From the sequence record CP113993.1: 64,000 nt of DNA; one strand, 5' to 3'. The notes beneath the pieces are model-generated. The model saw only the letters and a program-made list of their open reading frames with translations, did no database searches and was not told the origin of the DNA. Below, one piece after another: positions 42,497 through 46,969 of the stretch; positions within the stretch are counted from its first letter, which is position 1, and every line of letters starts with the position of its first letter. The position numbers and the translations under genes are program-made. The DNA is from a plasmid.

Positions 42497-44599
42497 TTAA
42501 TCATGTATCGGCTTGGGGGGGGTGTTACGGATAGCAACTACCTCTCCTTTCCTGAAGTGAATAATACGATCTACCGGATAGGTTCGCTCATTTTTATGAC
42601 TAACAATTATTTTAGTGCATTCATAATTCATAATAACATCAAATACTTTCTTTTCAGAAAAAATATCGAGATTACTGTCAGCCTCATCAAGAATAAGTAT
42701 TTTAGGTTTTTTAAATAAAGCTCGTACTATAAGTAATTTTTGCTTTTCACCTCCAGATAAAAAATCACTCATATCACCAACTTGTGTAAAATATCCTAAA
42801 GGAAGTCTTGTTATTACATCATGAATGCCGATAGCATCCGCAATCTCATAAACCTGTTCAATATTGTCGAGATTGTCATTAAATGTAATATTCTCATATA
42901 TTGTACCAGGAAACAGGGAATCTCCCTGAAGAACTGATGATGTTATTTTCCTTATAGCATGCTTACCTGTTTTTTTAATATTAACACCTCCAATAAAAAG
43001 AGAACCAGCAACAGGTTCTGTTATCCCCAGCAGTATCTTTATAAACGTACTTTTGCCACTGCCTGAATCACCAGTAAGAAGTACCGTTTCATTCTCTGAA
43101 ATGTCAATATTGATATCTACCAAAACCAGAGGTGCCAGCTTATCGTACTGATGGTAAATACCTCTTGCTGACAAACTATAGTTCTCATTTAGCTCAAAGT
43201 ACGACGCTAAACTACTTTCGTCCGTGGCGTGAACGATTTCAGAAAGTCGTGAGGACTGTATTTTTAACAGCTGTATCTTATAAATAAGATTTATGACGAT
43301 AGTTGAACGTCTGGAGAATTCTACTGAATACGCCGTGAAGGCAAAAATCATACCAATTGTCATTTCATTATTAAGGGCCAATAAAACTGCCACAAACAGT
43401 ACCAGAATATTCCTGAAACCAGAAATGAACTGATTAATATTTGTTGCTATCATAGTTATGATTTGGCTTTTAGCACTAACGGAGGCTTCATCCGTTATAA
43501 TACCATGGTACTGGTTATGTATTCTGTGCAGCCCACCATAAAGTTTGTGAGTCTGAATAAATTTAAGTGTGTTAATAAGTACACTTTGCTCCCTGGATTT
43601 TAATGCAATTGTGCTCAGTTGATTTTGTTTTATGTAAAAATAAGCTGCAAATCTAACAACGGAGTATAATACACTTGCCATAATTACTATCGCTGCCAGT
43701 TCAACGTTATATGATAATAAAATAACTGCGATAATAATTGAGCTTGTTGCATTAAGAATTAGAGTAGATAACTTATCAGAAAGATAATTTTGGATTATGT
43801 CAATTGATTTAAATCTGTACATGATATTACCAAAACCACGAGATTTAAAGAAATCAACAGGTAATCTGGTTAGCTTTGAAAATACATTACTCCTCCAATT
43901 ACTTTTAAAATAAGCTTCAAACTTAATCTTGGTTAAATCACTCATAGTTGAAATAACAAATTGAAGGACCAGCAATGCTAATGAAACAAGAAAGCAAAAA
44001 ATCAGCAGATTTTTATCATGATCAGGAATAACTTTATCAAGTATTAATTGTGAAATACGCGGCATTAGCAATGCAATAATGTCAATCAAAATAGATGCGG
44101 CTAACATTTTAAAAATAAATGGAATAAAACCAATAACTTTGCCAGTAACATCACGTATGTTTATCTTCTTTGGCTTTACAGGGGAAAAACTTTCACTTTT
44201 CTTTATCTCAACAGCTACACCTGTAAAGTATTGTTTAAGTTTGTCTTGGTCAATTCTCATACACCCCAGTGCAGGATCATTTATTTCTACACTATTCTTA
44301 TTTATTTTTGTTAGTACAACAAAATGCGAAAAATTCCAGTGCAAAATACAGGGGAGTGTCAATTTTCTAAGTTCCTCAATAGTAAGGCTATATGCTATTG
44401 CACGAAAACCATGATCATTACATGTCTCCATAAGATAGCTGACTTTTGTTCCTCCTGTCTGGGCGGAGTGATTTTTTCTTAACTCTGGCAAAGAAATACC
44501 ATATCCATAGTAATTGAAAATCATTGCCAGGCAGGCCTGCCCACATTCACTGTCTTCACTTTGAAGAATGAGTTTCACTCTCTTTATAAACATGTCCAC
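42497..44599 (-). CDS. Bacteriocin/microcin-type ABC exporter with an N-terminal C39 peptidase domain (CvaB/MchF-like), 700 aa
   Basis: N-terminal QSEDSECGQACLAMIFNYYGY contains the C39 catalytic Cys. Six-TM core. C-terminal nucleotide-binding domain with GDSGSGKST, LSGGEKQK and ILDEADSNLD. Confidence 0.9.
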   Translation of the reverse strand: MDMFIKRVKLILQSEDSECGQACLAMIFNYYGYGISLPELRKNHSAQTGGTKVSYLMETCNDHGFRAIAYSLTIEELRKLTLPCILHWNFSHFVVLTKINKNSVEINDPALGCMRIDQDKLKQYFTGVAVEIKKSESFSPVKPKKINIRDVTGKVIGFIPFIFKMLAASILIDIIALLMPRISQLILDKVIPDHDKNLLIFCFLVSLALLVLQFVISTMSDLTKIKFEAYFKSNWRSNVFSKLTRLPVDFFKSRGFGNIMYRFKSIDIIQNYLSDKLSTLILNATSSIIIAVILLSYNVELAAIVIMASVLYSVVRFAAYFYIKQNQLSTIALKSREQSVLINTLKFIQTHKLYGGLHRIHNQYHGIITDEASVSAKSQIITMIATNINQFISGFRNILVLFVAVLLALNNEMTIGMIFAFTAYSVEFSRRSTIVINLIYKIQLLKIQSSRLSEIVHATDESSLASYFELNENYSLSARGIYHQYDKLAPLVLVDINIDISENETVLLTGDSGSGKSTFIKILLGITEPVAGSLFIGGVNIKKTGKHAIRKITSSVLQGDSLFPGTIYENITFNDNLDNIEQVYEIADAIGIHDVITRLPLGYFTQVGDMSDFLSGGEKQKLLIVRALFKKPKILILDEADSNLDIFSEKKVFDVIMNYECTKIIVSHKNERTYPVDRIIHFRKGEVVAIRNTPPKPIHD

Positions 44600-44601
44600 C
44601 T

Positions 44602-45891
44602 CTACTTATTATCCTTAAAAAACTTAATTAATGGCTCAAGTAACCAAGTTATAAGCATTTTTCTGTCAAGAAGGATGTCAGCATGCACATGACTTCCTGA
44701 TGGTATTAAGTATAAATGTTGAGCATATACTACATCATTGCTGTCTGGCTGAATGGTGATTCGGTACATGGGTGAGCTGTATTTAAGACCATAACTTGAC
44801 TCTATTACACTGGGGTCTATCGGATACCTGCCAATATCCTTAATAATCCCTTGATAAACACCATATTTCTGAAATGGATAGCTATCATATTTTAAGGTCA
44901 CTCTTCCTCCACAAGTAACATCGGCTATAGATGAGCTATCCAGAAAGAGGTAAACAACCATTTCTCGTGTGTCAGGTATAATTGTTAAGATTTTTTCATG
45001 TGGAGAAACACTATCGCCATTCGTTTTAGTCAGGCCGGATACATATCCCTCCACAGGGGAAGTAATTACGTAGTACTGACTGTCAGACTCTGCACTTATT
45101 TTCTGGTTTAAATCATAAATTTGTTTTTTATATTGAGTCTGAGTCTGATTATAATCATCATATATTTTTAACTTTTTATTCAAAAGCAATAATATACTTT
45201 GCTCCTCTTCATTAATATTTTTTTTATAGTTTTCAGCCTGAATGGCAAGGTTAAAGTGATTTCTTGCTATATTATTCACCTCCATATCAGAAACAGCCCC
45301 CCCTGGATGTAATTTAATTATTTTATCATAAAACGGTTTTTCACGACGGATTTCATTCTCTGTTAATAAAAGAGTTCTTTCCAAAATAACAAGAGACTCC
45401 CGCCTCTTATTAAGCTCTTTATCAAGAATTAAAAGTTGTTCTTTTGTTGATTTATACTTAGACGATAACTCCTTCTCCAGGGCTTTTTTCTCTTTATTAA
45501 GTAACCCGATACCAATCTCTGTATACTGAATCCCAGAACTGTCTTTCATTACAGAGTTAATTGAAAATAATGCCTGATCTTTGTGTACATAGTCACCGTG
45601 GTGTACGTTAAGATTACTGATAACGCCCCCAGAAGCGGCATTTACTGTGGCCACTCCTTTTAATGGTATCGTAACACCAGTGACACTTACTCTTTCGGTG
45701 TACTTTAGCGTCATCATTATAAAAATGATTAGCAAGCATATTATTGCACACACAACAAACGCTACATGTGTTGATGGAACAGAAACCGGAGATATCGATT
45801 GTTGTTTATTTTTATACGCAACCGCCTCTTCCCTAAAAATACCCTTATACACTTGTAAATTCCTCATCATACTTGTAGCTTTTTGTTTCAT
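44602..45891 (-). CDS. HlyD-family membrane fusion protein (CvaA/MchE-like), 429 aa
   Basis: N-terminal single TM (FVVCAIICLLIIFIMMTL), a long coiled-coil middle and a C-terminal beta domain. Its stop lies 2 nt before the ABC exporter start (operon). Confidence 0.88.
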   Translation of the reverse strand: MKQKATSMMRNLQVYKGIFREEAVAYKNKQQSISPVSVPSTHVAFVVCAIICLLIIFIMMTLKYTERVSVTGVTIPLKGVATVNAASGGVISNLNVHHGDYVHKDQALFSINSVMKDSSGIQYTEIGIGLLNKEKKALEKELSSKYKSTKEQLLILDKELNKRRESLVILERTLLLTENEIRREKPFYDKIIKLHPGGAVSDMEVNNIARNHFNLAIQAENYKKNINEEEQSILLLLNKKLKIYDDYNQTQTQYKKQIYDLNQKISAESDSQYYVITSPVEGYVSGLTKTNGDSVSPHEKILTIIPDTREMVVYLFLDSSSIADVTCGGRVTLKYDSYPFQKYGVYQGIIKDIGRYPIDPSVIESSYGLKYSSPMYRITIQPDSNDVVYAQHLYLIPSGSHVHADILLDRKMLITWLLEPLIKFFKDNK

Positions 45892-45974
45892 TTATACATT
45901 AAAAATAATTATGCATTCGAACTAAACGTTAAGCTATTTTAAAAGCTCAAATAGTACAAATGGAGTCGATATAT

Positions 45975-46535: not shown

Positions 46536-46564
46536 TAGTCGTATAAAATAAAGTAGTTTTAGTT

Positions 46565-46597
46565 AAAACTGACATTCACGAATGTCAGTTTTTCTTC
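46565..46597. terminator. Rho-independent terminator (aaaactgacatt-cacg-aatgtcagtttttcttc), bidirectional in form
   Basis: 12-bp stem, A-run upstream and T-run downstream. Lies 30 nt after the cargo gene stop. Confidence 0.7.
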
Positions 46598-46969
46598 ATA
46601 ACGTGTGCCTTCCCGGATGTGAAAATCATTATGCAGGCGAGTATAAAAGTATTTAAATACCATATAGATCATTAAACTTACAGTGAAAAATAATAAGGTG
46701 CGCCTCAGGTAAATAGAAAAAACTTTGCATGCAATGACAACCAGCCTTAATAAAATAGCCGCTTCTACTCTGACCATCTGATATACTTTTACTGGTGATA
46801 GCCACTGAATGTATACGTGACACCAACAATAAATACCGGTACATATTTACTCTGTACACTTTCAGAATCAGTATACGCTCTTTATGAAACCGAAAAATAT
46901 AACCGTAAAAGATATGAAAGAATTTTTACGGGACATAAGTCTCATAATTTATTTGTTAAAGGGCTCCTT

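Follow-up and report, generated by a model that had tools for sequence, protein, structure and literature searches.

Does a plasmid locus equipped like the colicin V export system, but carrying a 186-aa acidic protein as its cargo, secrete a microcin or something else? The question is raised by a 4.7-kb cassette located in a 64,000-nucleotide stretch of the plasmid record CP113993.1 (the window; coordinates without a locus label refer to it), which belongs to a pESI-type conjugative IncFIB megaplasmid of Salmonella enterica serovar Infantis and is 100% identical to pESI-family records. The cassette is made up by the genes for a peptidase-containing ATP-binding cassette (ABC) transporter (PCAT), a membrane fusion protein (MFP, or adaptor) and a protein with a double-glycine leader, hereafter called the cargo. 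It is a type I secretion system (T1SS) of the PCAT kind with a new, uncharacterized cargo family, and the comparisons reported below make it very probable that a conserved acidic protein of 18 kDa is released via microcin-type machinery.

The exporter gene (42497-44599, minus strand) encodes a 700-aa protein in which Pfam matches and alignments delineate a C39 peptidase (Peptidase_C39, E = 1.9e-36), a six-transmembrane domain (ABC_membrane, E = 1.5e-29) and an ATPase (ABC_tran, E = 3e-26). The residues Cys19/His92/Asp108 align to Cys32/His105/Asp121 of CvaB, the triad defining functional microcin exporters (PMC9746304), and the triad is retained in nine of nine family exporters. Walker A, signature and Walker B motifs are intact. 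Identity to CvaB and MchF is about 32%. The adaptor gene (44602-45891, minus strand), whose stop codon is 2 bp away from the start of the PCAT gene, encodes a HlyD-family protein matching HlyD_3 (E = 1.8e-13), HlyD_D23 and Biotin_lipoyl_2 in Pfam, and type_I_hlyD (E = 1.5e-30) in NCBIfam. Its longest open reading frame (ORF) starts at 45891 (429 aa), but the start annotated in GenBank and RefSeq records, at 45852 (416 aa), fits better the length of its relatives (404-416 aa). No TolC outer-membrane partner is encoded in the window, and one is expected on the host chromosome. The features of a PCAT-type T1SS, namely a competent N-terminal C39 domain, a double-glycine substrate and an MFP, are all found in the pESI cassette.

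The cargo gene (45975-46535, plus strand) is divergent from the adaptor-exporter genes. The precursor starts with MKKLTSMELDLIAGS, followed by G after the cleavage point, and fits the double-glycine consensus. The leader (aa 1-15, 45975-46019, plus strand) is predicted to be cleaved after Gly14-Ser15. Across 25 family members the consensus is in register (L-12, E-8, a hydrophobic residue at -7, I-4, G-2, G+1), residues L4, G14 and G16 being invariant and I12 nearly so, and the leader resembles that of CvaC (MRTLTLNELDSVSGG, as read from locus L017). The mature protein is 171 aa long (18.4 kDa), lacks cysteines, has a pI of 4.8, a net charge of -20 and a grand average of hydropathy of -0.38, and hydropathy analysis revealed no stretch able to span a membrane. 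Acidic residues (D+E) are 30 of 171 (17.5%), histidines 15 (8.8%).

Most of what a previous inspection of the same letters (the earlier note) had recognized in these three genes is borne out: the coordinates and the domains of the C39 exporter, the HlyD identity of the adaptor, the divergent gene with a double-glycine leader, the size of about 171 aa and the lack of cysteines in its mature product. The start of the adaptor had been placed, probably too far upstream, at 45891, and both the D+E content (about 25%) and the number of histidines (17) had been overestimated.

The mature cargo is a 35-aa helical N-module followed by two repeats of about 60 aa. The N-module (aa 16-50, from GIGLGEALEDVAEAIIEIAH to LGEALDH; 46020-46124, plus strand) is predicted to form a helical hairpin (helices 19-35 and 40-48 in a low-confidence AlphaFold model), and holds the invariant H35. 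Repeat 1 (about aa 58-119; 46146-46331, plus strand), a predicted helix-helix-beta-hairpin, features the conserved H79-x4-H84, repeat 2 (about aa 122-186; 46338-46535 with the stop codon, plus strand) the invariant H171 and K178. The two internal repeats, which the earlier note had already recognized, are supported both by self-alignment of residues 60-118 and 126-184 (BLOSUM62 score 132) and by profile-profile comparison, hhalign yielding E = 4.9e-11 for the whole family and E = 3e-3, in the same register, for the E. coli-type subfamily alone. Conservation between subfamilies is highest in the N-module (46%), and drops to 35% in the leader, 33% in repeat 1, 26% in repeat 2 and 5-13% in the linkers.

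Structure prediction of the repeats, which had been proposed along with the original description, was carried out by stacking repeats 1 and 2 of all members into one coherent alignment of 36 rows, then submitted to AlphaFold. The resulting unit is modelled with confidence (predicted local distance difference test, pLDDT, 93; predicted template modelling score, pTM, 0.79) as helix 7-25, helix 31-43 and a beta-hairpin (47-50/55-58), and may be useful in the design of mutants. No significant structural neighbour of the repeat unit was found in the fold libraries searched, nor did a sequence search of PDB with the cargo return any match. The H-E-x3-H-x-G-x-D string of repeat 1 might recall a zincin. 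This reading was judged unlikely because the spacing is unlike that of HExxH, the Salmonella subfamily has Asp in place of the Glu, and the domain measures just 60 aa.

A word-indexed profile search of 5.8e9 proteins retrieved 29 clusters of cargo homologues, all annotated as hypothetical and Pfam-free, in E. coli, E. albertii, Klebsiella, Salmonella, Yersinia enterocolitica and Mergibacter septicus. Exhaustive scanning with HMMER, over 1.84e9 representatives, yielded just two full-length ones, of the two subfamilies, plus fragments. The cargo has no match in Pfam or NCBIfam; relaxed thresholds gave nothing consistent, and weak matches to MccV and Mersacidin involve the leader only. The earlier note had indicated membership in a known intracellular family as the outcome which would speak against a secreted product, and no known family emerged from these searches. 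The cargo protein is encoded by 164 plasmids according to tblastn, and at least 80% of the 4.7-kb cassette region is present in 107 plasmid records. E. coli-type cargo genes reside in 50 of 5426 complete E. coli genomes (about 1%), 38 being chromosomal. These had to be searched with a query of their own, as megablast of the pESI locus found no match in complete E. coli genomes. Nothing about this locus was found in the literature on pESI microcins and type I secretion, or on six family accessions.

In intact contexts the cargo gene is always accompanied by adaptor and PCAT genes, and the arrangement varies with the lineage. Tight cargo-MFP-PCAT operons, with gaps of 8-50 bp, are found in the Mergibacter chromosome (where the cassette lies between argG and cutC), in Yersinia, in the Salmonella locus L014, and in E. 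coli both on a plasmid (L005) and on the chromosome (L015). The divergent layout marks the Salmonella subfamily (pESI, L010 and L011). Family PCATs form one clade (bootstrap 100/100), which excludes CvaB, MchF and three other enterobacterial PCATs, and MFPs do so with a support of 68/100. The branching of PCATs parallels the relationships among cargos, and cargo, MFP and PCAT have co-diverged as a unit. They have not, for that, changed at the same pace. Identities of cargo, MFP and PCAT are 70, 43 and 54% between pESI and L010, 82, 51 and 63% between E. coli and Yersinia, 71, 52 and 57% between Klebsiella and E. albertii. The cargo is more conserved than MFP in 28 of 28 locus pairs, and more than both MFP and PCAT in 25; the three exceptions are cross-subfamily pairs, in which cargo and PCAT are within 1-6 points. 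In microcins the core peptide is highly variable, PCAT and MFP highly conserved (PMC9746304), and the pattern found here, with the cargo conserved above the pump, is the opposite one.

An E. albertii plasmid (L004) encodes after the PCAT a 192-aa hypothetical protein (11194-11772, plus strand), which has no Pfam match and whose GHCSLQ and NCADIV motifs hint at a Cys/His enzyme. Other cassettes are devoid of it. In the pESI record CP052840.1 the PCAT gene is split into two coding sequences (two BLAST pieces), as a result of either a frameshift or faulty sequencing of that isolate.

Proteins conferring immunity to microcins are membrane proteins of 51-216 aa encoded by the adjacent gene (PMC9746304). 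All-against-all comparison of flanks and gaps of more than ten family loci revealed no conserved small ORF, but just insertion sequence (IS) fragments and the cargo gene itself read in other frames. The earlier note had seen no convincing immunity gene at this locus, and none is conserved in more than ten independent genomic contexts. The only local immunity-like candidate is orf72 (46559-46777, minus strand), a doubtful gene which might encode a hydrophobic protein of 72 aa, with a maximal 19-residue hydrophobicity of 2.18 (2.19 in the 78-aa Cvi). orf72 is missing in the nearest relatives arranged in the same way, whose DNA resembles that of pESI no further than the stop codon of the cargo gene, is found in no other family locus, and is not annotated in either GenBank or RefSeq records. 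As a conserved immunity gene it was ruled out by this lack of conservation. Its 3' end contains, as previously noticed, a terminator-like hairpin. The element (46565-46601, plus strand) consists of a 12-bp stem with a CACG loop (46565-46592) and a T-run, and is the probable intrinsic terminator of the cargo gene; support is modest, as the centroid free energy is about -12.4 kcal/mol (z = -2.0), and 7 of 200 shuffled sequences fold equally well.

Additional genes for double-glycine peptides were monitored by a six-frame regular-expression scan of the whole window. The scan revealed two ORFs missed by the earlier note, at 54241-54528 (plus strand, 95 aa) and 15737-15994 (minus strand, 85 aa). 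Both peptides are Gly-rich, contain two Cys, are annotated as hypothetical and are conserved across pESI. The 95-aa peptide, which reads MIVISELDCSYINGA up to the cleavage point and GGGVSEALHGVAHAVEGAAH thereafter, is microcin-like, and shares with the cargo leader register and N-module. Its family includes 95-97-aa peptides found in Salmonella only (11 clusters, one member being named 'Bacteriocin' by UniRef). Comparison with the cargo family by hhalign gave E = 6.3e-10 with the leader, and E = 1.9e-4 and 40% identity without it, homology covering the first 35 or so mature residues (G-x-G-L-G-E-A-L...A-H...G-E-x-L-G). By comparison, CvaC scored only 5 bits against the family profile. The two families also share the same plasmids, as the 95-aa peptide accompanies the cargo type in a second plasmid lineage (L007-L009), and an evident immunity ORF for the 95-aa peptide is missing in the 1.27-kb block conserved with L007. 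They differ in that the 95-97-aa peptides end with a 45-aa Gly-rich, two-Cys region, are restricted to Salmonella and are never found in an exporter operon. The 85-aa peptide, with the leader MKSLSENEIINVSGA followed by G, is encoded in a low-GC patch just past fyuA. In an E. coli plasmid homologue (L023, 6001-6261; 39% identity) the mature domain is retained but follows a Sec-type signal peptide (MKSILFVAIVMFMLASGQASA), as if one export route had been exchanged for another.

Only one PCAT was matched in pESI records, so the pump may serve several substrates, and the 95-aa peptide is a possible second one. No other double-glycine ORF was detected near the E. coli-type, Klebsiella, Yersinia and Mergibacter cassettes by the same scan, which did recover known microcins beside outgroup PCATs. 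Among these controls, the IncI plasmid L021 encodes a 120-aa double-glycine peptide (391-753, plus strand; leader MAGIRELTLDEITLVSGG) ahead of the genes for a CPBP protease, an adaptor and a PCAT, in what looks like a typical microcin locus. A 190-aa gene beside the L021 PCAT lacks a leader, is unrelated to the cargo and was discarded as a family member.

With the colicin V (microcin V) system the pESI cassette shares a PCAT with the Cys/His/Asp triad, a HlyD adaptor, a leader of 15 residues closely alike in sequence, the plasmid location and the absence of a local outer-membrane component. The exporter, in contrast, is separated from CvaB by low identity and clade. CvaC is a neutral, Gly-rich protein of 103 aa with a disulfide, whereas the pESI cargo is acidic, hydrophilic and Cys-free, no conserved gene plays the part of cvi, and cargo is more conserved than pump. 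Gene order differs as well. The earlier note regarded the divergent pESI genes as mirroring cvaAB versus cvaC, which does not hold, because in the ColV plasmid cvaAB and cvi-cvaC are convergent operons; the layout is divergent in pESI and a single operon elsewhere in the family. PCAT1 of Clostridium thermocellum (4RY2), to which the pESI exporter aligns end-to-end (E = 2e-68), with conservation of the catalytic Cys/His and of the ATPase motifs, provides a mechanistic template for how a leader is bound and cleaved and for alternating-access export, but is a Gram-positive transporter which works with neither adaptor nor TolC, on a small peptide (CtA) as cargo.

Two further assignments were discarded. 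An RTX/HlyA-type substrate would carry GGxGxDxUx nonapeptide repeats, which are missing (the sole GG run, G36-G37-D-G-G-V, does not fit them), and would have an uncleaved C-terminal signal and an ABC protein whose C39-like domain is degenerate; the cargo has an N-terminal signal and an exporter with the catalytic Cys. Mcc1229 is encoded by a locus (mctA-G) featuring the Cys-rich MctA, the cupin MctC and DUF4440/DUF2164 immunity proteins (PMC8853679), none of which is present here. Class II microcins have verified precursors of 75-120 aa and mature forms below 10 kDa (PMC9746304). The cassette has their double-glycine leader, triad PCAT and co-encoded MFP, but neither the small size (171 aa and 18.4 kDa for the mature cargo) nor the adjacent immunity gene nor the variable core, and the cargo is therefore not to be filed as a class II microcin. 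The earlier note, too, had set it apart from typical class II microcins, and size, absence of an immunity gene and inverse variability agree on this.

How would the system work? The predicted export by PCAT, MFP and TolC with cleavage of the leader is well supported by the sequences and by comparison among loci. By analogy with CvaAB/MccV and PCAT1, the C39 domain would bind the leader and cut after Gly14-Ser15, and, as in other PCAT systems, the unfolded 171-aa chain would move through the ABC dimer, the adaptor and the chromosomal TolC to the medium. Outside the cell it would fold into the helical N-module and two helix-helix-beta-hairpin domains. The comparative patterns suggest that the mature protein may be harmless to the producer, rather than a classical class II microcin, and may act outside the cell on a conserved partner, either a host, a surface or a competitor component. 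The N-module may serve in export or recognition for this exporter clade specifically, or may be the active part of the protein. The absence of an immunity gene, the strength of purifying selection and the make-up of the protein, which is hydrophilic and acidic and has two domains, argue for such a non-self-toxic factor, and a conserved external partner would explain both why selection is stronger on cargo than on pump and why an immunity gene is missing. We give about an even chance to a secreted factor of this sort, and judge it slightly likelier than a bacteriocin.

Several points weigh against this account as a whole. Full-length modelling of the cargo (25 sequences) gave an unusable structure (pLDDT only 38). 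The N-module is common to the cargo and a Gly-rich, two-Cys, microcin-like peptide. The hydrophobic, Cvi-like orf72 adjoins the pESI cargo gene. Bacteriocins devoid of immunity genes do exist, lectin-like bacteriocins being an example, and all the experimentally characterized enterobacterial PCAT cargos known to us are antibacterial microcins. In the Salmonella plasmid lineage L007-L009 (5795-6630 and 6753-7316), finally, the exporter has decayed yet the cargo gene is kept: the adaptor carries a frameshift and a truncation and the PCAT has been deleted, but the 187-aa cargo is intact in 19 contigs. A cargo persisting without its exporter fits poorly with strict pump dependence, unless the decay is recent. 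Plasmids of this lineage encode, downstream of the cargo, a 271-aa multi-pass membrane protein, which was set aside as lineage-specific.

The cargo might accordingly be read as an outsized class II-type bacteriocin, with an active N-module and the repeats mediating receptor binding or uptake, by analogy with MccV and MccH47, and with producers either protected by an unrecognized immunity determinant (perhaps orf72 in pESI) or naturally insensitive, lacking a receptor variant. To this possibility, which we regard as real though rather unlikely, speak the leader, PCAT and MFP of microcin type, the plasmid location, at times beside colicin-related genes (such as that for cloacin immunity in L003), an N-module also present in a Gly-rich, two-Cys family including a UniRef 'Bacteriocin', the resemblance of orf72 to Cvi in size and hydrophobicity, and the precedent of bacteriocins without immunity genes. 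LlpA-type lectin-like bacteriocins of Pseudomonas provide a partial parallel: they are made of tandem domains and have no immunity gene, but adopt the monocot mannose-binding lectin (MMBL) fold and have neither a double-glycine leader nor a dedicated PCAT. Proteins longer than 150 aa, moreover, have been left out of published microcin screens, which would have missed a bacteriocin of this size (PMC9746304). The same reading has to cope with the lack of a conserved immunity-like ORF in more than ten contexts, which include tight operons and the Mergibacter cassette set between housekeeping genes, and with the absence of orf72 in the closest relatives. It also has to account for a cargo which is more conserved than its exporter, has a strongly acidic, hydrophilic composition and, with its 18 kDa, doubles the size limit of microcins.

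A secreted metal- or haem-binding protein, a scavenger or buffer akin to hemophores or metallophores and using its histidines, is a good deal less probable. Histidines make up 8.8% of the mature pESI protein, and H35, H79, H84 and H171 are conserved family-wide, the H-[ED]-x3-H motif being included. The other eleven are specific to the Salmonella subfamily. Salmonella versions have 13-17 histidines, other family members 5-9 only. The Salmonella member of the E. coli-type clade (P0025; L014, 2628-3209) has 16, versus 5-9 in the rest of its clade, and is independently His-rich, so that enrichment appears recurrent in Salmonella-borne versions. HasA, a hemophore secreted by T1SS, is similarly acidic, has a size of about 19 kDa and relies on dedicated secretion of the ABC/MFP/TolC type, but its C-terminal signal is uncleaved, its ABC protein is devoid of a C39 domain, and its gene is linked to that of the receptor HasR. 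No sequence match to HasA was found in PDB and no HasA fold match for the repeat, searches detected no similarity to any metal-binding family, and no receptor or uptake gene accompanies the cassettes examined. Upstream regions of 11 loci contain no Fur box above chance, although the test is weak, as the fyuA control itself scored only 13/19. The yersiniabactin (ybt) genes are absent from the contexts of other family members examined, and in the window fyuA/ybt end at 14114, 28 kb away from the cassette, with IS elements and unrelated genes in between. The metal-related function hinted at in the earlier note is weakened on all these counts, since His-richness is Salmonella-specific, a Fur box is missing and ybt is distant. 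Its 'low-GC sub-island beside the yersiniabactin locus' was correct in composition (34-38% GC in the cassette area vs. 55-62% in ybt genes), not in adjacency.

That the relevant pESI substrates of the pump are the 95-aa and 85-aa peptides, two pESI-conserved microcin-like genes without an exporter of their own on plasmids having one PCAT match, and that the 186-aa gene is a relic or an accessory passenger, is very improbable, since the 190-aa cargo is the sole double-glycine gene in E. coli, Klebsiella, Yersinia and Mergibacter cassettes and co-diverges with the pump, and the intact 186-aa gene is itself highly conserved. The protein of about 190 aa remains the predicted cognate cargo.

Coming back to the non-self-toxic factor, a broader and more tentative proposal, to which we would give less than an even chance, is that these proteins of about 190 aa represent an unrecognized class of PCAT substrates, folded two-domain extracellular effectors which use the export route of microcins, the N-module serving as a second, clade-specific signal. 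The effectors might be, for instance, host- or surface-binding colonization factors of gut and avian Enterobacterales and Pasteurellaceae. The N-module would also admit to the pump small peptides carrying the same module, and the pESI cassette would be a non-bacteriocin secretion system aiding the success of an epidemic plasmid.

Gram-negative PCAT-type T1SSs are regarded as a route for microcins smaller than 10 kDa. The family described here falls outside this size range, and has been overlooked because microcin-mining pipelines limit candidates to 150 aa or less (PMC9746304). It is nonetheless conserved and mobile, being found in about 160 sequenced plasmids, the globally epidemic pESI included, and in about 1% of complete E. 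coli genomes, and its evolutionary signature, a cargo conserved above the pump and no immunity gene, is the inverse of that of a toxin/immunity system. If the protein is secreted, either the range of size and chemistry of microcin-like antagonists is far wider than assumed, or the machinery also delivers non-toxic effectors. Either outcome would alter the annotation of such loci. pESI is being actively studied for its fitness determinants in poultry, and would gain a new candidate secreted factor.

The interval between the divergent transcription units (45892-45974) is AT-rich and presumably holds the promoters of both, although a promoter scan of this region did not score above shuffled sequences. 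A GGAG ribosome-binding site is located 9 nt before the ATG of the cargo gene, and the interval shows about 67% DNA identity to the stretch upstream of the cargo homologue in L007.

On the other side, the cargo gene is adjoined by a pair of overlapping regulator genes (46970-47689 and 47686-48111, both minus strand), one CaiF/GrlA-like and one SprB-like, which may control the AT-rich island. A distant regulator pair (27-42% identity) follows a 97-aa peptide gene in a S. Gaminara plasmid (L022, 2496-3759). Recurrence being limited to this distant pair in one other Salmonella plasmid, and other cassettes being devoid of such genes, the regulators were rejected as conserved partners. A second CaiF-like paralogue, 71% identical, is encoded at 38062-38472 (minus strand) near a gene for a 1781-aa autotransporter (31656-37001, minus strand). 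The latter features PATR repeats and an autochaperone domain, and probably corresponds to PeaP, an adhesin described in a 2026 preprint (PMC13228587). The autotransporter gene is preceded by a NusG/RfaH-like gene (37081-37560, minus strand) and followed by an EAL-domain gene (30781-31539, minus strand).

In at least four independent contexts, no more than a few kb separate the cassette from fimbrial or adhesin genes, which may be a coincidence inside accessory islands. These are the pESI chaperone-usher operon (55230-60364, minus strand), a Yersinia K88-like operon (L013, 1-5075), an E. coli chromosomal fimbrial operon (L015, 11927-14573) and CfaE-like fragments (L010, 7337-7765). Between the ybt end and the IS-rich region, a small metabolic module (16858-20730) consists of a pyridoxal phosphate-dependent enzyme of Cys/Met metabolism, a permease and a divergent sigma-54 activator.

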